Below are positions 32,352 to 63,228 of a DNA stretch of 64,000 nt, piece by piece; positions within the stretch are counted from its first letter, which is position 1; every line of letters begins with the position of its first letter. The stretch lies in contig CBDATS010000004.1 in the NCBI GenBank assembly GCA_965200245.1, positions 576,001 to 640,000 of the forward strand. Reading direction: 5' to 3'. The stretch is from a bacterium. Lineage in GTDB: Bacteria > UBA8248. The position numbers were made by a program, and so were the translations under genes. The notes under the pieces are model-generated. The model searched no databases. It was not told where the DNA came from and was given only the letters and a program-made list of their open reading frames with translations.

Positions 32352-33023
32352 CTAGGTGCCAAGTCCTCGCAGTCGAAAGAAAGCGAGTGCCGTTAGGAAT
32401 ATAATTCGTAAGTCCATCCAGAACGAATAATTCAGTATATAATATAAATCGTGTTCCAGCTTTATCCTGTAATCTTCAGTCTGATCTACATATCCCTGTC
32501 GAATTTGCGCCCATCCAGTGATTCCTGCAGGCACGAGTTCCCGATATTTGAATTCGGGATAATATTTTTTGGCTATCTCTAGCGTTTTTATGTACTCCGC
32601 TCTCGGTCCGACGATGCTGATATCTCCCTTGATGACGTTCCAGAATTGCGGAAACTCATCGAGATGATAGCGGCGCAGAAAACGCCCGTACGGGTAAATT
32701 CTCAAGTCGTTTTCCTTCGTCGACATGGTTCCCTGCGGCTCGTCGGCATTTACGCGCATGGTCCTGAACTTGTAGAGCGTGAACAACCGTCCTCCTTGGG
32801 TAATGCGGGTTTGTGAATAAAAAATCGGTCCTTCGCTAGAGAGTTTGATGAAAACAGCAATCAAGGTTCCGAAGGGAAAGAATATGACCAGGGCCATCAC
32901 GCTAAGCCCCAAATCCAGAACACGCTTGCAAAGAAACTGACGACGGCTTAAAAACTGCCCGTCCTTCAAAGCGGACAATTTCCCGGCCCCGGGAAAAGAT
33001 TCCAACGGAACGCGACCTTCCAT
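32352..33023 (-). CDS. sugar transferase (polyprenyl-phosphate glycosylphosphotransferase)
   Basis: KRVLD, YKFRTM, LDEFPQFWNVIKGDISIVGPR, GITGWAQ. Confidence 0.92.
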   Translation of the reverse strand: MEGRVPLESFPGAGKLSALKDGQFLSRRQFLCKRVLDLGLSVMALVIFFPFGTLIAVFIKLSSEGPIFYSQTRITQGGRLFTLYKFRTMRVNADEPQGTMSTKENDLRIYPYGRFLRRYHLDEFPQFWNVIKGDISIVGPRAEYIKTLEIAKKYYPEFKYRELVPAGITGWAQIRQGYVDQTEDYRIKLEHDLYYILNYSFWMDLRIIFLTALAFFRLRGLGT

Positions 33024-33564
33024 GAATCTCCTCAATTCGCTTGAAGAACGCGTAGCACTTCATGCGTCCATAATATAATGCCGACCGCTTTTTTCGCTTC
33101 ACATTCGAGACGAATTTCTGGATACACGGGGAGTTGAGAAAATCAATACGAAAACACCAACTGAATTCGTCAAACCAAAATATACATTCCACCACACGAC
33201 TGAATGAGAAGATATTATCTCGGGTAACCAGAAACGGATGAGAGCAAGGAAAAACCCGGAGAAATGAACGAAGACAAATTCACAAATTTTCTCCGATCTT
33301 TAGAGAAGAAGTGAATTTCTCGCTTCGGAGCGGCGGCTCAATTTTGTACTTACACTATTCCCGTTCTAAAAACCGATGCTCGAAAAGAGACCAAAGCCCC
33401 AGTTAGACGGTTTTTCTTGTATCCGGGATGGTATTGATTTATGTCAGAACAAGTTGCTTCATGAGCCGGTAGTGTCTCACTTTGAAATTTTCCAAAAATG
33501 ATTGTATTCGCGTTTTTTCAAGTAGGTTACACGTTTTATTCACTTTTCATGGGAGGGAATGAAT

Positions 33565-33726
33565 ATGGCTACCGGCCCACAGGGGCAGAAAAGGCCGGGG
33601 GATGTTGTAGGGTGTGCTGTTCGTGTGGCACAGATTGCGACCGGTGAAGTAGTGGAAACAGAAAGTCAGGAAAATGCCCGCAAGGGCGGCCATGCAAGTA
33701 TCGCTGTTTTGAGAAGAAATCCATAG
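33565..33726 (+). pseudogene. small IS-end-associated protein (GPQGQKRPxDVVG...RKGG), 3'-truncated
   Basis: GGAGG RBS; near-identical inverted copy at 40402-40610. Confidence 0.7.
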
Positions 33727-33843
33727 TCCTTCGCAAGGTGCAGACTACCTCTGCCGTGACCTTACCTGGAATGATTTATTTACGATTTGACATGTCTGGC
33801 GGTCTGAACCGTCATACAATCCGCGGGGTGATTCTTCTTGAGA

Positions 33844-34842
33844 TCAATCTTCATACATGATCGACCAGCTTTCCCCCGGATATTTTTTCTGGGTTTCTTC
33901 CCATGTCATGAAATCACCTTTTGAATCATTTGGTGATGAGCCGAAATAACTGTAAAATCTACATCTTTCCCCCTGATTTTCGAACCCATGGCTTTTGGGA
34001 AGTTCACGTGATTCAAGAAATGCAAATTTCTTGTTTTTGATTCTGGTATAGTTTCCGTCGGCCTTATCTTTAATGAGCCTCGGGTTGAGCGTGAATTTGT
34101 TTTTGATCGGGTATTCTTTAATCTTGCCGGTCGATGGGTCGATCAGTTGCCCTTTCTTGCTTTCCAGAGGCAGGAATATGATATAGTCTTGGTCGTATCT
34201 CTTGCCATGTTTTATAAGCATGTCTCTGAGATATTCGCCATCCATGTCATTATTCGATTCATCTGCAATGAAGAGGGAATTTTCCTCAACGTCTATTCCT
34301 TCCTCTCCTTTTTTGGTTGTGCAGATTTCGTAGTTCTTTCTTGCGGCTAACTTGGCATAATATTCTTCATCGTTCTTAAAATCCCTTCTCTTGATTGCTT
34401 CACACCAACCTCCTGAAACATCAGTCACGCTAAACTTCAATTTTCTCACTGAGTCTCGCAGTTCTCTATGTCGGTTCATGTTCGTTTTGTATGAATAACG
34501 ATCTTTGAACGCGGATATCGTTCCACAGTTGTATTTTTCCCATTTTCTCTTTATCTTGGAGAAACCGCTTTCAACCAGTATCTCACCATGGGTTTCCAGT
34601 TCGATACAATCGCACCAGTGGTCTTTCGCAGGCTCTATGATTGTATCGCGGGCATTCCAGAGCCTGTCTTCGGTGATATACAGATTCGAATCATGGATCC
34701 AGTCTTCGTACATGTCCGCCATTCGCAATGCATATTCAGTAATTCTTTCCCCCCTATCGAGTTCTGGATCGGGGAACCCGACTTCATCCATGAATCGTTC
34801 CGCCATGCGTTTCTGGGTGATTTTTCTGGTTTTATGCAGCAT
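33844..34842 (-). CDS. acidic N-domain fused to phage-type SAM lyase (SAMase)-like domain
   Basis: ISAF, NMNRHR, TDVSGGWCEAI, VEE, YDQD collinear with T3 gp0.3 motifs as recalled. Confidence 0.65.
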   Translation of the reverse strand: MLHKTRKITQKRMAERFMDEVGFPDPELDRGERITEYALRMADMYEDWIHDSNLYITEDRLWNARDTIIEPAKDHWCDCIELETHGEILVESGFSKIKRKWEKYNCGTISAFKDRYSYKTNMNRHRELRDSVRKLKFSVTDVSGGWCEAIKRRDFKNDEEYYAKLAARKNYEICTTKKGEEGIDVEENSLFIADESNNDMDGEYLRDMLIKHGKRYDQDYIIFLPLESKKGQLIDPSTGKIKEYPIKNKFTLNPRLIKDKADGNYTRIKNKKFAFLESRELPKSHGFENQGERCRFYSYFGSSPNDSKGDFMTWEETQKKYPGESWSIMYED

Positions 34843-34866
34843 CGGATTTCCTTTATTTTGCCTTCG

Positions 34867-35241
34867 TCAAAAATTCTTGATAATTCCCATTTCATTCCGT
34901 GCCCGGTTCTTCATCAAGTCGTATTTCTCTTGAGTGTCGTCATTGTACATCGCTGTCTGTATTTCACTCGCCGCATTCGGGTGAGACGTGAAACTGTATC
35001 TGAACGTTCTCGGGCCGGTGGCCTCCAGCAATAATTCCGACCGATCTTCGAGCCAGTCAAGAACAGATTCGGTTAATTCATCTTTCGTCAGCTTATCGAG
35101 TTCTATGTTCTCCTCGATGGGCAGACGATCCATGAACGAGAGTACGGCATATTCCGGGTCCAGACACTCCATGATCTCGTCTGAATTTTCATCCAGTATG
35201 TCATACAGCGTTTCAATCAGGTAGTCGAGATAATCGTCCAT
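34867..35241 (-). CDS. highly acidic domain fused to a truncated RelE-like segment; paralog of 38501-39115
   Basis: 25 D/E versus 4 K/R in the first 73 aa; YSFTSHPNA..E...AM......YDLMK aligns with the paralog. Confidence 0.65.
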   Translation of the reverse strand: MDDYLDYLIETLYDILDENSDEIMECLDPEYAVLSFMDRLPIEENIELDKLTKDELTESVLDWLEDRSELLLEATGPRTFRYSFTSHPNAASEIQTAMYNDDTQEKYDLMKNRARNEMGIIKNF

Positions 35242-35257
35242 GCCTCCTATTTAGTCT

Positions 35258-36256
35258 TCATGTATCCCCGTTTCCTTCGTCCCGGAAAATTTTAAGGGGA
35301 TCACTCAAGATTCGACGACAATAGGGCAATGATCGGATAAACTCCCTCATGAATTCAAAGTCAGGGGAATCCTCTTTTGAAGGCAGCTTGATTTTCAACC
35401 TTTTCAGGCGTGTTTGACTACACTTTCTGCCGTAGTTGTATCTGAATTGTTCCATGTTCAATATGGTCACCAGAAACATGGCGATGTAACTGTCCATCCT
35501 GAATTTCGGATACAGGACTTCTACATGATCCGATGCGGAAAAGGGACGGTTTTGGTAAGTACAATAACCAATCACAGCACTCTCAACGGTCAATAGCCCC
35601 CTTCCATCCTTGTTTTCAGTATAGTAGTCATAGAATCCTCCGACTCCGTTATTTGTGTCCTGTGTTGTGATGTAGGGAAATTCACCCTCGCCCCTTTCTT
35701 CCAAATCCGCGAGCGGGGTTGTTTTTGAACCTGAAACATCAAATAGCTCCGCGATTCTGAACCATTTCCAGTCGCTTTCAAACAGATTTCTGTTTTCCAG
35801 GGAAGCAGGCTTCCCGCTAATCTCGGGTATTTCAATGCTGCCAACCCAACCAGGGATATCGTCAGGGACCAGTAAGTTGTACAGGGTTTTGTTCGCTTCT
35901 CTTCCATGAGAGGTGTAACGAAACCTGTTCCTGGCTATTGCGCAACAATAAAATACCTTTTGCCGGAAGCTCATATCCGACTTCGGGCGCAACACTTTGA
36001 TGTTTTGGGCCGTATAAAAGGGTTCTGGCTGGACAAAGGACGAAAGAAGATACGTGCCTCCGAGAGAAACTGTGATAAGTCCTTTCGGGTAAGGTTCCAG
36101 GCCCTCTATCGCACTTACCTTGCAATCAATCCCCAGGTTCTGCGATGACCTGGAGATGAAATGGGTCCCATCATCATCCAGAGACAATTTGTTCCTGTCG
36201 AGTTGATTCCCGTACTCGATATCGAAAATACATTTCAACGGAGTCAGACTAGTCAT
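35258..36256 (-). CDS. restriction-modification specificity subunit (BcgI beta-like)
   Basis: Two TRD repeats, FRYTSHGREAN / FRYNYGRK, PDFEFMREFIRSL; overlaps the stop of the RM gene. Confidence 0.85.
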   Translation of the reverse strand: MTSLTPLKCIFDIEYGNQLDRNKLSLDDDGTHFISRSSQNLGIDCKVSAIEGLEPYPKGLITVSLGGTYLLSSFVQPEPFYTAQNIKVLRPKSDMSFRQKVFYCCAIARNRFRYTSHGREANKTLYNLLVPDDIPGWVGSIEIPEISGKPASLENRNLFESDWKWFRIAELFDVSGSKTTPLADLEERGEGEFPYITTQDTNNGVGGFYDYYTENKDGRGLLTVESAVIGYCTYQNRPFSASDHVEVLYPKFRMDSYIAMFLVTILNMEQFRYNYGRKCSQTRLKRLKIKLPSKEDSPDFEFMREFIRSLPYCRRILSDPLKIFRDEGNGDT

Positions 36257-38099
36257 ATCTCACTCGAAAGGATACGTATTCTCTAATTGCCTTTTCAAAG
36301 TCTTCCGAATCCAGTTTTGAATAATCCGTTTCCATGTATGCTTCGGCACACCACTCATCTTCTGCTTCGATAGATTGTAAAACGCTCACGCCAGCCTTGC
36401 TTTCCCGGTTGAGAAAATGTCCCAACCATGCATTTTTGATTTCATCCCACGACCCCTTGTCGATCCGACCCATATTTTTCGTTTTCTCGAAACCGTCATC
36501 TTTGAAATAGCCAAAAAATGTCTTGTATCCCTGCCGATGAGGTATCCTGGCTTCAAAAACCATAATGCAGGTAACTACTCCGACAGGGTGGAACAAATCA
36601 TTCGGCATGGAAAATGCGCCGGACAAGTTGTGGTCACGAAGCAATTCTTCGCGAATTGAGGTAACTTTTGATGTTGATTCCGTCGCACAGCTCATTTGAA
36701 CAATCGCAACACATCTTCCCCCAACTGCAAGGCACTCTAGTGCGTTTTGTATGAATCTCAATTGTCCCTCCGGACCCACATCATATGGAGGGTTCAGAAA
36801 AGATACTGTTGGCTTGAATCCCTTTAACCTGGCCTTTTCATCCCCGGAGAAAGAATCGCCTTGATATATATGGGATTTGCCATCGCCACCCATCATCATG
36901 TTCGAACACGCATACGTAAACATGTCCGGTCTTTTTTCAATTCCTACCAACTGTTCTGCCTTGATTTGTCTCTTTTTTTGTTCGTCATTGCCAGCCAGCT
37001 CGAGCATTCGCTTCATTGCAGCCAACAGGAAACCACCCGTTCCGCAACAAGAGTCGAATACGACGTCATTCACGTTAAGATGCGCTATATCGCAGAAAAA
37101 CTCCCGGATATGTTGGGGCGTGAGAACCAATCCTGTCTTCCTGTCTGTGCCGGCATATCGGATGAATTCATTGTAGAAGCGGCCAAGAACATCATGGCCT
37201 TTATCTCCCATTTCCATGAGAGGGAGGATATTCGACTCTAACTCCTGGACAATGTCTCTCAACACATAGTTGTCTTCTTCTTTGATAGCCTTTTTCTTTT
37301 TGCTCTTTTTGTCTTTGGCGATGGCGTAATTTTCGATTTTCCTGTACTCACTTGTCATCGCTCTGACGCGGCCCTGATCTATCTGATTGTCTTGTAAAAC
37401 CTGCTCTATGCTTTCCACTACTCGACGGGCAACCCTTTCGGGGCTTGGCCTCGATTGGCTCGTTCTGGCTGCTTCCTTGTAGGAGTTCCTGAACGCATCG
37501 TTTTGTAGTGCCAGCAAAATAGCACTGATCAGGGTACATCTCTCATATTCAACGATTGAATAATCATTCAACTCCTTGTTCAGAAAAATTGCTGTTTTGG
37601 TGATTTCCTCGCTTTCTATCCTTCTCGCTACGACTTCACCCCGGGACTTGTTGATGTAGGAATATACGTCAAGGAGCTTTTCATCTTCCTGATGACATGC
37701 ATCTTTGCCTTTTGTGTAGTAAAAGGATGAAATTCTGATTTGTCCTTCTTCACTTCCACTCACAGCGATTGCCAGGACGTTATATTCAGGAATCAGGAAT
37801 CTGGCATAATGCGGGATGCCATCCACAGCGTAGTCTTTTGGGTTGGACCGATCTCGGCTTTCGTGAAATTTTATATCTGCCTTGCATTCAACCAGAATAA
37901 TGTCGTCAGGCTGACTTGGAAAACTGATAATGAATTCAGGATAACCGGGCTTGCCAGTTTGGTTTTTGGATGCTTTTGACAAGCATTCTCTGGCTCGGTT
38001 GAGGGAGGTTCGCTGTTCTTCAAGTTTAATGGTTTTGAACAAAGGGTCGCGTTTGAAGTGGTCTCGTACTATGTCCTCTGTCTTCCTTTCGTTCGCCAT
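36249..38099 (-). CDS. fused restriction endonuclease/N6-adenine methylase (BcgI alpha-like, type IIB/IIG)
   Basis: YPEF...VECK nuclease motif, DSCCGTGGFL, NPPY. Confidence 0.88.
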   Translation of the reverse strand: MANERKTEDIVRDHFKRDPLFKTIKLEEQRTSLNRARECLSKASKNQTGKPGYPEFIISFPSQPDDIILVECKADIKFHESRDRSNPKDYAVDGIPHYARFLIPEYNVLAIAVSGSEEGQIRISSFYYTKGKDACHQEDEKLLDVYSYINKSRGEVVARRIESEEITKTAIFLNKELNDYSIVEYERCTLISAILLALQNDAFRNSYKEAARTSQSRPSPERVARRVVESIEQVLQDNQIDQGRVRAMTSEYRKIENYAIAKDKKSKKKKAIKEEDNYVLRDIVQELESNILPLMEMGDKGHDVLGRFYNEFIRYAGTDRKTGLVLTPQHIREFFCDIAHLNVNDVVFDSCCGTGGFLLAAMKRMLELAGNDEQKKRQIKAEQLVGIEKRPDMFTYACSNMMMGGDGKSHIYQGDSFSGDEKARLKGFKPTVSFLNPPYDVGPEGQLRFIQNALECLAVGGRCVAIVQMSCATESTSKVTSIREELLRDHNLSGAFSMPNDLFHPVGVVTCIMVFEARIPHRQGYKTFFGYFKDDGFEKTKNMGRIDKGSWDEIKNAWLGHFLNRESKAGVSVLQSIEAEDEWCAEAYMETDYSKLDSEDFEKAIREYVSFRVRYD

Positions 38100-38280
38100 T
38101 TCAATACGCCCTTCCAGGCGTATTGAAATGGCGAAAAAAGGGGTTTTCTTGAAACAATCCGATGTTTTTGGGGAGGTTAGTTTACTAGCTGTGCCGCCCC
38201 CGTCAGTATACCAAGATTTTCCTTCATCATGCGATACGTCCTTTTAAGGGAACTATACCCCCCACAAAAGAAGACCGAAA

Positions 38281-38514
38281 TCACCGGTAGTCTTCAGGCC
38301 AGTCGCGTCCTGTTCTTTCGGCCTCAAGCCTGTCCCTTTCGAGGATTCCCATGAATGTTTTCTCGAATTTTTTGCGAGAAACCCCTTCCAGGCAGAATTC
38401 GATAGCTTCTTCCCGGAGTTTTTTGTCTTGCCAATTAACAAGAATGTGTCCGCGAGAATCATCAAGTTTCTTGTCTCGATAGGTTTTCTGTTTTGATTTC
38501 TTAAGGCCGACCAT
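38281..38514 (-). CDS. hypothetical protein overlapping the toxin 3' end (candidate antitoxin)
   Basis: 77 aa, GGAGG-type RBS, 14-nt overlap with the toxin ORF. Confidence 0.5.
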   Translation of the reverse strand: MVGLKKSKQKTYRDKKLDDSRGHILVNWQDKKLREEAIEFCLEGVSRKKFEKTFMGILERDRLEAERTGRDWPEDYR

Positions 38515-39115
38515 CTACTTCATCCCTCCGTCTTTTGGCTTTCTCTATTTCGTTTCGTGGTATACCCCTGCGTTTCTTCACAAACGCAGAGAGAACCCAG
38601 ATAATCCTTCCTCTCACGGTAAAGAAAACGCGAACCTGCCTGGGCCGGAAATACCGGATGTCATGGTCTTCGCGAAGTATTTCGACATGGGGATATCCCA
38701 TCGCACGAACATTTCTTCTCGCCATTCTTTTCATAACGTCATATCTGCGTCGGGTGGCCTCGTCACGCATGGCATTTTCTACTTCACGCGGTGCGCTTGG
38801 ATGATGCCTGAAGCTATAATTATCGTCTGATCCGGAAGCCTCCGATAACAGCTTTCACGTTTCCGCCCAACCCTCTACCGAGTCCTCGGCGACAGTCAAT
38901 AACCTATCATGGATGGCCTGTTCCGTCATCTCGAAGATGTCGGTGTCCACGTCCTCGTTCACGGCCCTGTAGTATCCGAGAGTCGGATCGCTGCCGAGAA
39001 CCTCGATCAGTTCCGAACGTCTCTCCGGGACATAATGCCCGACGTGTTCGCGTATCAGTCTTCGCGGATTGCGACTGTCGGCGATTTCTTCTTTCAGTTC
39101 TTCGAACGTAAGCAC
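38501..39115 (-). pseudogene. Ocr-like acidic domain + RelE/ParE (Gp49-like) toxin domain in one frame, with in-frame TGA at 38855-38857
   Basis: GWAET*KLLSEASG... runs in frame into VRVFF..RIIWVLSAFVKK..IPRNEIEKAKRR. Confidence 0.7.
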
Positions 39116-39187
39116 GTGTATTCCTCCCTGTGGAAATGTCCTGTTGTATCTATACGATTTCAGGAGGGTAGAACGGGGTTTAGAAAA

Positions 39188-39376
39188 CTACTCGCGATCC
39201 ATCCACTCCGCGGCAAAGTCGAGCAGTTCATCCTCGGTCGCCCTTCGTGCCTGCGAGATGTATCTCTCGACATGTTCCATGACGGCTTTTTCCGGGTTCC
39301 GGCTTTTCTCGATTCCGGTTCAGTGATCCTCTAAATCATCGAGAATATCCTCTGTGATTCGTTTCACTGAAGGTAT
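39188..39376 (-). pseudogene. stand-alone acidic domain of the same family (ATA start, internal TGA)
   Basis: AAGGAG RBS; ITEDILDDLEDH*TGIEKSRNPEKAVMEHVERY...DELLDFAAEWMDRE. Confidence 0.6.
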
Positions 39377-39507
39377 GGTTTTTCTCCTTGTAAACAAGAG
39401 TTCCGGTATCTATTTATGCGTTCGCGAGAAGGCAATTCCGGAAAATTTCTCCCTGTTTTGGGACCTTTTTGCCTGATGGCAAGCATGATATCTCATATAT
39501 TGTGGGC

Positions 39508-40380
39508 ATGAACAAGCTGCCGACATCAAAGAGAGTTCAAATCCTCAACATGCTGGTCGAAGGGATGTCGATGCGGGCCACCTCCCGCGTGGCAGGCGTT
39601 TCCATCAACACCGCTACAAAACTCCTCATCAAGGCCGGTGAAGCCTGCGCCGAGTATCATCACAGCCATGTGCAGGAAATCCAGTCAGAGCGCGTCCAGT
39701 GCGATGAGATCTGGTCTTTCGTCTATGCCAGGCAAAAGAACGTGGCGGGTGAGCAGGCTGCATCCGAAGACTCGGGCGATGCGTGGACGTGGACGGCCAT
39801 CGATGCCGATACGAAGCTGGTTATCTCGTATCTCGCAGGCGGGCGCGACAGCGGATATGCGGCCGAGTTCATGGAAGATGTAGCCGGGAGACTGGCAAAC
39901 CGCGTCCAGATGACCACGGACGGCCACAGGGCATATCCCGAAGCGGTGGAAGATGCCTTTGGCGGCGAGACAGGCTACGCCATGCTGTTAAAGCTCTATG
40001 GCCCATCGAAAGAGGAAGGCCGCTACAGTCCTTCGGAGTGTATCGGAACGCGCACCGCCACCATTACGGGAAGGCCCGATCCCGAGGATATCTCCACCAG
40101 CCATGCAGAACGCCAGAACCTCACCATGCGGATGTGCATGCGCCGTTTCACGCGCCTTACGAATGCCTTCTCGAAGCGTCTGGAGAATCACATTCACATG
40201 CTCTCGCTTTACTTCGTGCATTACAACTTCTGCCGGATCCACAAGAGCCTGCGCGTAACTCCGGCAATGGCCGCAGGCATGGATTCGCAGCTTCGTGACA
40301 TGGAATGGATCGTTCAGCTGATCGAAGCCTGCGAACCGAAGCCCGGCCGCCGCGGGAAATACAGGAAAATTTCAAAGTAA
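39508..40380 (+). CDS. IS1-family DDE transposase
   Basis: MNKL...LVEGMSMRATSR HTH, QCDEIWSFV, TTDG, ERQNLTMRM, HYNFCRIH; stop codon lies inside the TIR. Confidence 0.92.
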   Translation: MNKLPTSKRVQILNMLVEGMSMRATSRVAGVSINTATKLLIKAGEACAEYHHSHVQEIQSERVQCDEIWSFVYARQKNVAGEQAASEDSGDAWTWTAIDADTKLVISYLAGGRDSGYAAEFMEDVAGRLANRVQMTTDGHRAYPEAVEDAFGGETGYAMLLKLYGPSKEEGRYSPSECIGTRTATITGRPDPEDISTSHAERQNLTMRMCMRRFTRLTNAFSKRLENHIHMLSLYFVHYNFCRIHKSLRVTPAMAAGMDSQLRDMEWIVQLIEACEPKPGRRGKYRKISK

Positions 40381-40401
40381 GACACTACCGAAATTCCGTT
40401 C

Positions 40402-40610
40402 TTATTTCCTTGCCCATCGCGCCGCCGCGCTATTCTGCGCGATTTCTTTCCTGCGTTCTGCAGTAAGGTTTCTCGCTCTTGCGTGGCCGCCCTTACGAGA
40501 TTTTCCTGACTTTATGTTTCCACTACTTCACCGGCTGCAATCTGTGCCACACGAACAGCACACCCGACGACATCTGCCGGTCTTTTCTGTCCCTGTGGGC
40601 CAGTAGTCAT
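40402..40610 (-). pseudogene. second copy of the small IS-end-associated gene
   Basis: MTTGPQGQKRPADVVGCAVRVAQIAAGEVVET* then RKGGHARARNLTAERRKEIA...ARW after a frameshift. Confidence 0.7.
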
Positions 40611-40614
40611 AGTA

Positions 40615-40806
40615 TTATCTTCCCGTTCGTTCAATCAGGGTTCGGAGGGCAATCATGGATTCCTCATGCCTTTTCTCGAACTCGTTTGCTCTTTGCCTGG
40701 CATTCAAGTTCATCACATGGATGCCATACCATATGCCAATTAATACCCCATACGATTGGATGAGGAGCAGAATTTGAAACTAACCCATGCTATTGGAAGG
40801 GTCCAC
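40615..40806 (-). pseudogene. small membrane/coiled-coil protein with internal TAG
   Basis: LIGIWYGIHVM...RHEESMIALRTLIERT; resembles 61218-61490. Confidence 0.5.
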
Positions 40807-41046
40807 TTTTATCTCCTCCCATGACAAGTAAAAACATATGTCCTGCTTGACAAAAACGAAAGTACGATTATTTCTGGAAAATTTCAAAGTGAGACACTAT
40901 CCATGAGTCGGGCGCTTTTTTCCACGCCTCATCTCATGCATATGAGACGTGAACAGAGTGACGGCGCAGAAAACCGTCTCCCCAAGGCACGCATTGTTCC
41001 TCTCTCGCGCCGACCTACTTGCGGAAGAAATATCGATATTCGAACG

Positions 41047-41124
41047 TGGCGTCCCCAAGGGGATTCGAACCCCTGTTGCCGGCGTGAAAGGCCGGTGTCC
41101 TGGGCCAGGCTAGACGATGGGGAC
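41047..41124 (-). tRNA. tRNA-Glu(TTC)
   Basis: GTCCCCATCGTCTAGCCTGGCCCAGGACACCGGCCTTTCACGCCGGCAACAGGGGTTCGAATCCCCTTGGGGACGCCA. Confidence 0.97.
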
Positions 41125-60944: not shown

Positions 60945-61135
60945 TTCAGGAGAAACAATCCATCCGGGAGCAAATCACAGAAGCCTTCCTGATAACCTGA
61001 AAGACCACCAGGAGAAAACCGGGGAGAGCGCAGGCCGCGAAGATGCCGTCATGGAACATGTCGGGAGACAGGGGCGCAAAAGGCGGGCATGGATGAACTG
61101 CTTGATGCTGCCAAGGAATGGATGGCTCGTGAGTC
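60945..61135 (+). pseudogene. degenerate second copy of the stand-alone acidic-domain gene
   Basis: DAVMEHVGR...DELLDAAKEWMARE; shares a 19-mer with 39268-39286. Confidence 0.6.
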
Positions 61136-61217
61136 ATTTTCTGTTACAATAAGAAAAACGTATCGTGCGATGAGATACCTGCAAGAGGAAACAATGATAG
61201 AGATAGAATTTGAACCG

Positions 61218-61490
61218 ATGGAAATAGCTGAAGTTGTAAGCTTGGCTGTGAGTCTGTTTACGGGTTTACTGACCCCCTCGGTTATCGGATATGGCATCTA
61301 CGCCATGATGAAAGCGAACAGGGAACGCGCAGTGGCGAGTGACAGGATAAATGAGGTACTGGCAAAGGCTATAGAAGGACTGGACAATTCGAACACTGCG
61401 CTCGCGAAGGCCATCGAAGGTATGGACAAGACCATGGAAGGGCTGGATAAGTCCAATACTGCGCTCGCAAAGGTACTGGAAAGGTTATAA
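61218..61490 (+). CDS. small single-TM coiled-coil protein with heptad repeats
   Basis: VIGYGIYAM followed by AKAIEGLDNSNTAL repeats. Confidence 0.6.
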   Translation: MEIAEVVSLAVSLFTGLLTPSVIGYGIYAMMKANRERAVASDRINEVLAKAIEGLDNSNTALAKAIEGMDKTMEGLDKSNTALAKVLERL

Positions 61491-61651: not shown

Positions 61652-62446
61652 TCACCCCCCGCGCGAGATCATTTCCCGGAAATGGCTCAAGAGGAACAGC
61701 ACTGCCGCCGCCACGACGATGCATGGACCCGCCGGCGCGTTCCATTCGACCGACGCCCACAGGCCTGCCCCCACCGAGACGACCCCTGCAAGGATGGCGA
61801 ACGCCGCCATCTGCTCGGGTGTTTTGGCGAACCGCCGTGCCACCGCCGGTGGAATGATGAGCATCGAGGTGATGAGCAGAATCCCTATCAGCTTCATGGA
61901 AACGGCGATGATGAAGGCGACCAGGAACATGAAGACAAACTTCACGCGGAAGGTCGGTATCCCTTCGGCACCAGCCAGTTCTTCGTTCACCGTGACGGCG
62001 AGTAGCCCCCGCCACAGCCACGCGAGCACGCCCAGCGCAGCGGTACCACCCAGATAGATCCACCACAAATCCAGCGGGCCGACCGCAAGGATATCCCCAA
62101 AAAGGTAGCCCATCAGGTCTACCCGGAGGGTCTCGACCACACTGACAGCGATGATGCCTATCGAAAGCGCCGTGTGGGCCAAGATACCCAGCAGCGTGTC
62201 GATGGAGAGTGTTTTCCAAGTTTGCAGCGCCAGAAAAACGATCGCGAGGCCGATGCAGGAGATAAAGATGCCGAGTCTCAGGTCGACCCCGAAGGCGAAC
62301 CCTATCGCGACACCGAGCACGGCCGTGTGGGACATGGAGTTTCCAAAATAAGCCATCTTGCGCCAGACGATGAAACAACCCACGGGCCCCGTCACCAAGG
62401 CGACGCCTACTCCGCCCATGAATCCCCTCAATATGAAATCCTCCAT
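61652..62446 (-). CDS. znuB: zinc ABC permease
   Basis: GCFIVWRKMAYFG..SH, MGYLFGDILAV. Confidence 0.92.
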   Translation of the reverse strand: MEDFILRGFMGGVGVALVTGPVGCFIVWRKMAYFGNSMSHTAVLGVAIGFAFGVDLRLGIFISCIGLAIVFLALQTWKTLSIDTLLGILAHTALSIGIIAVSVVETLRVDLMGYLFGDILAVGPLDLWWIYLGGTAALGVLAWLWRGLLAVTVNEELAGAEGIPTFRVKFVFMFLVAFIIAVSMKLIGILLITSMLIIPPAVARRFAKTPEQMAAFAILAGVVSVGAGLWASVEWNAPAGPCIVVAAAVLFLLSHFREMISRGG

Positions 62447-63228
62447 CAGTTGCCTCCGTGATGGCGATGGGCTTCCTCGGGTTCGACAGGGAATATCTCC
62501 CCCTCCGGTCCGTGAACATGGTCGTGGCTGTGGGTGTAAATCGCCAGACTCTCCGCCTGTTTTCCGAACAAGGCGAGGTATTCGGGATGTTTGCTCACGG
62601 CTGTGGGATGTCCCGAGCAACAGATATGCCTGTTGAGGCATACCACGAGATCGGTGAACGCCATGACGAAGTGGAGGTCGTGCGAGATCATGATGACACC
62701 GCATCCCCTCTCGTCCCTGATTTTCGCAATCAGGCGGTAGAGTTCGCTCTGCCCGTTGATGTCCACGTTCTGGATGGGCTCGTCGAGAACGAGCAGATCG
62801 GGCTCGCGCAGCAGGGCGCGGACGAGTAGCACGCGCTGGCGTTCTCCTCCGGAGAGGCTCTGGACGGGATGATCCAGCAAGTTATCGGCACCGACTTCTT
62901 CGAGGCACTTCTCCATCTGCTCGGGCGAGGGTTTCTGGGTGAGACACAACAGCCTGCGCACGGTAAGCGGGAGCGAGGGGTCGACCTCGAAGACCTGGGG
63001 CAGGTAGCCGACCGAAAGGCCCTCTTTCCGGTGGATCAACCCCGAATCGGGCTTGATCAATCCGAGCAGCACGCGGATGAGCGTGGTCTTGCCTGCACCG
63101 TTCGGGCCGACGAGGGTAAGAATTTCACCGTACGAAATGTCGATGCCGACATTCTGGAGTATCGTGGACCCGCCGATACGAAGGTGGAGGTTCGCGGCGG
63201 AGATGAGAGAGCGCCGCGCGTCATTCAT
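62446..63228 (-). CDS. znuC: zinc ABC ATPase
   Basis: GPNGAGKT, LSGGE, ICCSGHP, His-rich tail. Confidence 0.92.
   Translation of the reverse strand: MNDARRSLISAANLHLRIGGSTILQNVGIDISYGEILTLVGPNGAGKTTLIRVLLGLIKPDSGLIHRKEGLSVGYLPQVFEVDPSLPLTVRRLLCLTQKPSPEQMEKCLEEVGADNLLDHPVQSLSGGERQRVLLVRALLREPDLLVLDEPIQNVDINGQSELYRLIAKIRDERGCGVIMISHDLHFVMAFTDLVVCLNRHICCSGHPTAVSKHPEYLALFGKQAESLAIYTHSHDHVHGPEGEIFPVEPEEAHRHHGGN

Follow-up and report, generated by a model that had tools for sequence, protein, structure and literature searches.

Positions 33470 to 40901 of the 64,000-nucleotide stretch analysed here (the window; positions 576,001 to 640,000 of contig CBDATS010000004.1, from a bacterium of the GTDB lineage UBA8248) correspond to a single insertion of a cargo-carrying transposon assigned to the IS1 family. 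We read this element as the carrier of a stand-alone Type IIB restriction-modification (RM) system, together with a mosaic of passenger genes which are not partners of the RM system, and give this reading a probability of about 0.6. A previous sequence-only reading of the interval 33844–39376 had described there seven co-oriented genes and had proposed that an RM pair dependent on S-adenosylmethionine (SAM) was combined with fusion proteins resembling Ocr, SAM lyase and RelE into a new conflict system. Three options had been considered: (a) an alleviation of restriction helping the element to establish in a new host, (b) a guard module in which a DNA mimic tethers a toxin to the RM complex, or (c) independent cargo accumulated by chance. 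Accumulated cargo is the best fit of the three. The activities mentioned in the following are those predicted for each protein. The accessory open reading frames (ORFs) are called p1, p2 and p5 to p8, and locations in the rest of the genome are given on its contigs C4, C5 and C8 (window position 61039 is C4:637039).

The borders of the element were visible by comparison with related genomes. An uninterrupted site, “...TTTCATGCGTCGGGC...”, was found in the four congeners fetched (4/4) at the place where this genome has the insertion. In all four, the empty site read “...TTTCAT(G/T)CGTCGGGC...” and ran straight into the sequence located to the left of window position 33470. The homology to the congeners stopped at 33462/33469 on the left and restarted at 40899–40907 on the right, where the flank was kept in 22/22 congeners. 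The 7432 bp element, to which no strand is assigned, is bordered by a 10 bp target-site duplication, with the left copy CATGAGCCGG at 33460–33469 (plus strand) repeated as CATGAGTCGG at 40902–40911 (plus strand). The two copies are identical at 9 of 10 positions, and the corresponding target in the empty sites is CATGCGTCGG or CATTCGTCGG. The target duplication of IS1 is 8–9 bp long, and the 10 bp observed here are at or above this size. Because of the empty site in four congeners and of the target duplication, the segment 33470–40901 is a single insertion. The location of the whole gene row within one transposon, as suggested by the sequence-only reading, was thus confirmed by the inverted ends, the duplication and the empty sites, in a unit wider than the interval first delimited.

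The outer inverted repeats have 48-nt arms, located at 33470–33517 (plus strand) and 40852–40899 (minus strand), which a repeat search showed to be 88% complementary. The right repeat terminates a partial, inverted duplicate of the left end of the insertion sequence (IS), covering 40399–40901 and identified by blastn against the IS copy at C4:968223–970550. The IS left end contains a 55-aa ORF (MNMATGPQGQKRPGDVVGCAVRVAQIATGEVVE...) at 33559–33726 (plus strand), with an inverted copy at 40512–40634 (minus strand). This ORF lies within a 125-nt inverted repeat (86%), was found by tblastn at seven places of the genome including the two in the window, and had no family match in Pfam, NCBIfam and PADLOC scans. 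The 303-aa transposase is encoded at 39469–40380 (plus strand), with an inner inverted repeat at 40364–40390. It matched Pfam DDE_Tnp_IS1 with 26.8 bits, above the cut-off of 24.1, and NCBIfam transpos_IS1 with 70.4 bits (E = 1.9e-19), below the cut-off of 100; the match to IS1595 was weaker. A partial copy of the transposase region, 99.5% identical, is present at C4:969921–970550. The cargo is located between the IS left-end ORF and the transposase, and the inverted extra left-end copy comes next. A transposase, terminal inverted repeats, a target duplication and cargo between the ends are also found in composite IS1-family transposons and in insertion sequences that carry passenger genes (“transporter IS”); in the element described here, by contrast, the right end is formed by an additional left-end copy of the IS in inverted orientation.

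The insertion took place approximately 145 bp from a tRNA-Glu gene (41047–41124), and an Rfam scan of the window yielded two tRNAs only. The G+C content of the region is 0.43–0.48 (0.457 for the cargo) as compared to 0.569 for the genome. A consensus promoter/terminator scan of the element showed no excess over shuffled sequences (12 versus 8.4 +/- 2.9, and 6 versus 8.2 +/- 2.5). Directly to the left of the transposon, a Bac_transf sugar transferase gene (E = 3e-60) occupies positions 32352–33035 with a G+C content of 0.474. On this side, the homology to the fetched congeners began only at 33276 (2/4), and the left neighbourhood is therefore variable too.

The RM subunit (36249–38099, minus strand) is a BcgI-A-like protein of 616 aa, composed of an N-terminal nuclease region and a gamma-class N6-adenine methyltransferase. 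It matched Pfam N6_Mtase (E = 2.7e-27, residues 302–610), PADLOC REase_MTase_IIG (4.7e-101, residues 29–613) and PHROG 13671 (1.1e-79), and its translation carries the motifs DDIILVECK, DSCCGTGGF (FxGxG-like) and NPPY. The specificity (S) subunit (35258–36256, minus strand), 332 aa in size, possesses two target-recognition domains. It matched Methylase_S in two stretches (E = 2.6e-24) and PADLOC Specificity_II (1.1e-48). These matches agree with the BcgI-like gene and S subunit recognized in the sequence-only reading. Scanning one genome per species for homologues of RM yielded 49 loci with 30–65% identity, most of them aligning over residues 1–612 of 616. S was located within 300 nt of RM at 43 of the 49 loci, and the S subunit of the window was full length when compared with its homologues. 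As judged from these alignments, RM and S constitute an intact BcgI-type (Type IIB) system. In a study of BcgI (PMC3592466), the nuclease is described as requiring SAM, the methylase as having essentially no activity at unmethylated sites, and the enzyme as cutting on both sides of its bipartite site. By homology, the RM subunit of the window would likewise cut on both sides of its site, and by analogy with BcgI its methylation and its cutting would both depend on SAM. The fused nuclease-methyltransferase with N6_Mtase motifs and the separate S subunit with two recognition domains are those of BcgI-type systems, whereas the location inside an IS1-family element and a 26-bp-stem hairpin over the RM start codon are different. 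Three of the RM homologues, at loci L013, L025 and L037 of three unrelated metagenome-assembled genomes and including the two closest (64–65% identity), directly adjoin IS1595-type transposases, and members of this RM family seem to have been carried by IS1/IS1595-type elements more than once. RM systems moving on insertion sequences are already known, and the core of the element is in this respect ordinary.

The accessory genes were not found with RM homologues in other genomes. Relatives of p1, p2, p5, p6, p7 and p8 were present at 0/49 of the RM-homologue loci (tblastn, E ≤ 0.01), and a hidden Markov model (HMM) of the SAM-lyase family matched at 0/49 (E ≤ 1). At least 2 kb were available on both sides of the pair at 24 of the 49 loci. 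When 150 of the 200 ORFs located up to 2.2 kb from the pair (loci L013–L049) were scanned with Pfam, neither PF23780 nor PF05973 was returned. The neighbours of the RM homologues were housekeeping genes, transposases and further genes for defence, as well as MazEF and YoeB modules. No accessory family was seen outside this genome, in which they recur in decayed copies within low-G+C patches (0.39–0.53), partly away from RM genes. The recurrent linkage with RM genes expected of a conflict system was not observed at the loci of the RM homologues. Among the papers listed by full-text literature searches, no title or abstract described a chromosomal SAM-lyase gene linked to RM, or a SAM lyase acting as a bacterial effector.

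The gene row itself, from 33.8 to 39.4 kb, consists of co-oriented ORFs all on the minus strand. RM and S overlap by 8 nt, the gap between S and p2 is 16 nt, and the gap between p2 and p1 is 24 nt. Most of the row first described was present. The acidic domain and the RelE-like toxin reported as a single protein were not one ORF. The stop-to-stop listing showed one frame from 39409 to 38501 broken by TGA at 39320, TAG at 39188 and TGA at 38855, so that the three parts (mini-gene, acidic domain and RelE-like segment) share one phase without forming one ORF. Position 39376, the end of the interval first delimited, is not a start codon, the nearest one being a GTG at 39367. With regard to a possible recoding of the TGA at 38855, as selenocysteine or by programmed read-through, the other genes of the row all end normally.

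The most distal gene of the row, p1 (33844–34842, minus strand), codes for a protein of 332 aa with a unique N-domain (residues 1–85) followed by a SAM-lyase-family domain (about 86–290). A HMMER search with p1 among 1.84 billion representatives gave 103 matches at E ≤ 0.001, four of them at E ≤ 1e-10 with two of these from this genome. Most of the relatives are about 190 aa in size and align at p1 residues 87–150 and 181–280. PF23780 was matched by 68 of the 69 aligned relatives (best E = 3.7e-24) and DUF3293 by 35 of the 69, and the p1 profile matched PDB entry 7ock_L (“SAM hydrolase / SAM lyase”) with an E-value of 1.6e-5. In the AlphaFold (AF2) model, the mean predicted local distance difference test score (pLDDT) was 73.9, with 82–97 in the core. 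Foldseek searches with this model placed T3 SAM lyase chains at PDB ranks 1–5, the best being 8bb1_E (E = 5e-4, probability 1.00, template modelling score TM(target) 0.67), the sole match with E ≤ 0.001. The only invariant columns in an alignment of 46 sequences were G144, E187 and Q218 of p1. According to PMC7877911, Gly56, Glu69 and Gln104 of Svi3-3 are the sole strictly conserved residues among active SAMases and all bind SAM, Tyr58 also contributing. The three p1 residues were equated with Gly56, Glu69 and Gln104 by profile alignment to the T3 SAMase, together with that report. By profile and predicted fold, p1 is assigned to the SAM-lyase family, and by analogy with the phage enzymes SAM cleavage is its most likely activity. 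SAM lyase converts SAM into methylthioadenosine (MTA) and homoserine lactone, and forms a trimer with the active sites between subunits.

To our knowledge, SAM-lyase-family genes have otherwise been described from phages, as counter-defence. The p1 protein shares with the phage SAM lyases (the T3 gp0.3 SAMase and Svi3-3; Pfam family PF23780) a family-level sequence relation, the T3 fold as recognized by Foldseek, and the strict Gly, Glu and Gln residues. It differs by its size, 332 aa instead of about 150 aa, by its unique N-domain of 85 aa, an insertion of 25 aa and an extension at the C-terminus, and by its gene being chromosomal, inside a transposon and with paralogues in the same genome. 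The sequence-only reading had described the protein as an acidic domain followed by a SAMase-like domain. The second half of this description was supported, whereas the N-part is mildly acidic (net charge −8) and unrelated to the acidic family of the neighbouring genes. As candidate relatives of this N-domain, the acidic family, the RelE-like domain and the N-extension of longer SAM-lyase-family proteins were all rejected, with hhalign probabilities of 0.06%, 0.14% and 0.2%, respectively.

A word-index protein search with p1 retrieved only p1 itself, its 90% cluster had a single member, and the gene was absent from 60/60 other genomes searched, 22 being congeners. In annotated collections, two phage records with 26% identity were found, within runs of hypothetical genes, and no plasmid record. 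Relatives were not found in viral contigs, and the clusters of the p1 relatives contained unnamed metagenomic proteins only. Paralogues exist in the genome. One of them, a protein of 337 aa encoded at the end of C4 and the start of C8, matched PF23780 with 36.7 bits, above the cut-off, over profile positions 2–130 of 133. It is located away from RM genes, together with an 86-aa partner and beside a sigma-70-type gene. The segments C4:1539921–1540790 and C8:1–871, which overlap with 99.9% identity, lie inside this intact gene, and contigs C4 and C8 probably join at that overlap. A second copy, at C4:641.4–642.7k, is disrupted by a 319 bp insert (C4:641654–641972, just beyond the window) which is 100% identical to window positions 62304–62622. 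We regard p1 as a probably active member of the SAM-lyase family that descends from a phage or a mobile element.

The acidic proteins of the row belong to one family. Iterating an HMM on the six-frame translation of the genome brought together the N-part of p2, p7 and the remnants of p8 into a family of about 60 residues, with the signature ...L.DDL....EI.ES..P..A..E... ...DELLDVAEEWMDRE and 13 matches in this genome. The gene p7 (38858–39115, minus strand) starts with a GTG behind GGGAGGA and codes for an acidic protein of 86 aa (E = 6.3e-15 to the family model, net charge −12). The gene p8 (39188–39367, minus strand) is a broken small member of the family with one in-frame TGA at 39320–39322 (E = 1.6e-23). 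Residues 1–75 of p2 contain 33% Asp and Glu, with a net charge of −21 and an isoelectric point (pI) of 4.05. The family was absent from 43 other genomes of the order, and the p8-type alignment had no relative in metagenome contigs or viral contigs. In this genome the domain was found fused to the RelE-like domain twice in the window (p7-TGA-p6 and p2), to a SAM-lyase-family domain at C5:402.1–402.9k, in a gene interrupted by a TAA whose two pieces matched the HMM with E-values of 1.6e-7 and 3.5e-7, and to a p5-like domain at C5:402.8–403.4k. Stand-alone copies, about 58–60 aa in size, were found upstream of membrane coiled-coil proteins at several loci. At window positions 61039–61490 (C4:637039–637490), a small acidic gene is followed by a gene for a 110–130-aa membrane-helix protein with NSNxAL coiled-coil-like repeats, and this two-gene module is repeated at C4:737.2k, C4:373.6k, C5:376.4k and C4:18.9k.

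The p2 model (pLDDT 77) is entirely helical over residues 1–75, with pLDDT values of 83–93. A fold search with this model gave no match with E ≤ 0.001, the best E-values being 2.6 in the PDB and 0.5 in BFVD. The resemblance to Ocr put forward by the sequence-only reading is one of charge only and was not upheld. The acidic proteins described here are, like T7 Ocr and ArdA, small and very acidic; they differ from them by the lack of a match in sequence or fold, and by their fusion to or pairing with basic domains, so that membership is unsupported. A second comparison may be made with CapRel-type fused toxin-antitoxins, with the “Panacea” domain of PanA, and with the three-gene systems PaaR-PaaA-ParE. 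There too, one small domain occurs with several unrelated effectors, or an acidic partner is found with a toxin of the RelE/ParE fold and a third small gene. The acidic family described here is, in contrast, confined to one genome and mostly decayed, and the likeness is one of organization.

The RelE-like part of the row was supported by a Pfam family. The p6 gene (38501–38854, minus strand; ATG at 38770, giving 89 aa, with an open frame back to the TGA at 38855) codes for a Gp49/RelE-superfamily domain matching PF05973 with 36.5 bits (cut-off 23.9), in agreement with the RelE-like assignment of the sequence-only reading. In the read-through of p7 and p6, with X at the TGA, the Gp49 match covered profile positions 6–89 of 90, starting from the ATG. 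The p2 gene (34867–35241, minus strand) codes for a protein of 124 aa in which the acidic domain is followed by a truncated RelE/Gp49-like start. The protein ends after about 49 residues of this part, whose truncation the sequence-only reading had noticed. Aligned with the p7-p6 read-through, p2 extended across the TGA at 38855 with 42% identity over 60 aa (E = 4e-11), and the 28 codons located between this TGA and the p6 ATG showed protein-level conservation with p2. Since the alignment spans the TGA, the acidic and RelE-like parts appear to have once been one polypeptide, cut by a TGA in one copy and truncated in the other. We found no Pfam, NCBIfam, PHROG or PADLOC match and no usable Protein Atlas match for p2, and word-index protein searches with the p7-X-p6 read-through and with the 117-aa p6 frame returned nothing. 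The two other genomic copies of p6 are stumps retaining the last 46–56 residues only. A complex prediction for the p6 frame and p7 gave a score of 0.00, which counts neither for nor against binding.

The p5 gene (38281–38514, minus strand), which overlaps p6 by 14 nt, codes for a basic protein of 77 aa (pI 9.3). It is intact in all three genomic copies, the paralogues at C5:403.7k and C4:670.3k having 76% and 58% identity, and an additional p5-like domain is fused behind the acidic domain at C5:402.8k. Searches with p5 gave no Pfam match at E ≤ 0.1, no helix-turn-helix and no significant PDB match (best E = 0.18), and the Protein Atlas provided a weak lead only, “dnstrm_HI1420” with a score of 0.78 (all leads were below 0.9). 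The protein may be an antitoxin or a regulator. The p6-p5 arrangement can be compared with the Gp49/HigB toxins followed by a downstream antidote (PF05973; HI1420/HI1419-type). The p6 match above the Pfam cut-off and the small gene p5 overlapping the 3' end of p6 are as in these toxin-first pairs, whereas the in-frame acidic domain preceding p6 and parted from it only by a TGA, the lack of a helix-turn-helix or other family match in p5, and the reduction of the other genomic toxin copies to stumps are different. Beside the third p6-stump/p5 pair, at C4:670.3–673.4k (L008 7300–10400), a block of small acidic ORFs was observed, among them duplicated antidote-like genes (MARTK...) and a gene for a protein resembling the YafQ toxin (PF15738, E = 1.6e-8). 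This block looks like another mobile-element remnant.

Between p5 and the RM gene, two signals were seen. A promoter-like leader (TGGTATACT ... CTAGTAAACTAACC) with an extended −10-like motif is located at 38174–38237 (minus strand). It is common to three other RM-type loci of the genome, at C4:470.37k, C5:403.95–404.03k and C5:214.74–214.80k, and may be a promoter. The gene behind the same leader at C4:470.4k likewise begins with MANERK..., stops after 58 aa and is preceded by a CCCCGACT repeat run. Downstream of the leader, an inverted repeat at 38085–38142 (minus strand) forms a 26-bp-stem hairpin enclosing the RM start codon, which is situated in its 3' arm. The predicted fold has an energy of −40.8 kcal/mol (z = −7.6) and 0/200 shuffled sequences were as stable. 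The hairpin may be a translational block or an attenuator of the restriction gene. Two metatranscriptome runs from one study, from which the DNA itself may also originate, provided contigs, informative of neither strand nor level, over 38032/38129–39462/39469, from p8 to p5 and including the leader and the hairpin, with a word depth of 10–14. In the same two runs, contigs with a depth of 3–6 covered p1, p2 and a piece of S and spanned the p2/p1 junction. No contig covered the RM body (36324–37985) in either run, although gaps in contigs prove little. In the two libraries, the contigs ended at or just past the hairpin. This pattern weakly suggests that the accessory genes were transcribed and RM was not under those conditions, and it fits with the hairpin over the RM start codon. 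A raw-read run with the same species label, X8, gave 46 reads on the stretch, too few to interpret.

We propose the following scenario for the origin of the locus. An IS1-family transposon would have inserted near the tRNA-Glu gene, bringing low-G+C foreign DNA into the strain. Its working core would be the stand-alone RM system, made of the BcgI-like fusion subunit and the S subunit, and the other passengers would be a mosaic of strain-specific mobile-element genes. Among these, p1 would have come from a source resembling a phage or a plasmid, as a gene acting against restriction, whereas p8, p7, p6 and p2 would be decayed genes in which a small acidic helical domain preceded a basic Gp49/RelE-type toxin domain. 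The p5 gene would encode a conserved small partner just behind the toxin domain.

Several observations weigh against this scenario. At C5:402–405 kb, a second RM-type gene is again accompanied by the four accessory families, which favours some link with RM genes. This locus contains the acidic-SAM-lyase fusion, the acidic-p5 fusion, and a p6 stump followed by p5. The RM-type gene, with an HSDR_N domain, is truncated at about 290 aa and located behind the shared conserved leader, and NERD, UvrD-like, AAA, Lhr and patatin genes are found in the neighbourhood. Another stand-alone acidic protein, 74 aa in size, adjoins an N6_N4 DNA methylase at C4:1250k. Since the accessory genes come from one genome only, finding no linkage in others cannot prove that they lack a link with RM in this one, and the operon-like packing of RM, S, p2 and p1 fits with the co-expression of a SAM lyase and a SAM-dependent enzyme. 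On the side of p1, the protein alone scored 26.6 bits against PF23780, below the cut-off of 28 and over residues 108–151 only, and it has Trp146 where Svi3-3 has Tyr58. With respect to the C5 locus, the divergence from the window is very unequal, with 76% identity for p5 and 27–31% for the p1-like part. The resemblance is due to recombination among related modules and not to the duplication of one block.

The tight spacing between S, p2 and p1, the SAM-binding residues and fold kept in p1, and the RNA-library contigs crossing the p2/p1 junction could also be explained by a functional coupling in which p1 is a built-in SAM rheostat for the Type IIB enzyme of the transposon itself. A SAM lyase transcribed together with the enzyme would reduce its cutting during establishment of the element in a new host with unmethylated DNA. 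The properties of BcgI (PMC3592466), a nuclease in need of SAM and a methylase essentially inactive on unmethylated sites, would make establishment a real problem, and the very stable hairpin hiding the RM start codon gives the impression that RM expression is controlled. In a variant of this hypothesis, p1 might also blunt the SAM-dependent restriction of incoming DNA by the host, and it is for p1 that the restriction alleviation suggested by the sequence-only reading could still hold. We nevertheless consider such a coupling unlikely. No SAM-lyase-family neighbour was seen at the 49 RM-homologue loci, the p1 paralogues are away from RM genes, a lower SAM level would hamper methylation too, and the RM body was uncovered in both RNA runs, although this last point is weak evidence.

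The acidic domain suggests two further explanations. It could be a promiscuous partner in cis which restrains basic effectors until a trigger is received, the proteins forming a fused toxin-antitoxin or sensor-effector family whose effectors would be a RelE-like RNase, a SAM lyase and the p5-like domain, and whose modules would accompany RM genes to provide a second defence line. The domain is indeed fused to Gp49/RelE-like, SAM-lyase-family and p5-like domains, these partners are basic (pI 11.6, 9.2 and 9.3), and the set is found beside RM-type genes at two loci. Most copies are, however, broken or truncated, the family comes from a single genome and is thus without comparative support, and no PADLOC model was matched, which makes this explanation quite improbable in our opinion. 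We hold with equally little confidence its most extended form, in which a lineage-restricted acidic domain of about 60 aa, fused in cis to unrelated basic effectors and with SAM destruction acting as a toxin or abortive-infection effector, would move together with RM genes under a common promoter-leader and make up a cassette of layered defence. The guard module suggested in the sequence-only reading is likewise unsupported, both acidic-RelE-like copies being interrupted or truncated. The alternative that p2, p7 and p8 are DNA mimics of the Ocr/ArdA type blocking restriction enzymes seems to us very improbable. The strong negative charges of p2 and p7 and the location of one family member next to a DNA methylase gene, and of others next to RM-type genes, are in its favour. 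DNA mimics share no single fold, and a missing fold match does not exclude mimicry. Against it are the absence of a PDB or BFVD match for the confident part of p2 (residues 1–75), the absence of a family match in Pfam, NCBIfam, PHROGs and PADLOC, and the situation of the domain, which is mostly part of a fusion with a basic domain or encoded in front of a membrane protein gene, a context that a role as partner or neutralizer fits at least equally well.

We therefore retain the reading of a stand-alone Type IIB system carried by an IS1-family transposon among a mosaic of passengers. Two features of this element are unusual: the presence in a bacterial chromosome of a SAM-lyase-family gene with its SAM-binding residues kept, located 400 bp downstream of an enzyme with relatives that require SAM for cutting, and the fusion of an acidic domain not seen before to three domains unrelated to one another. 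Should p1 be only cargo, the locus would be a clear example of mobile-element debris resembling a designed system. If p1 is active, it would mean that bacteria or their transposons keep SAM lyases.

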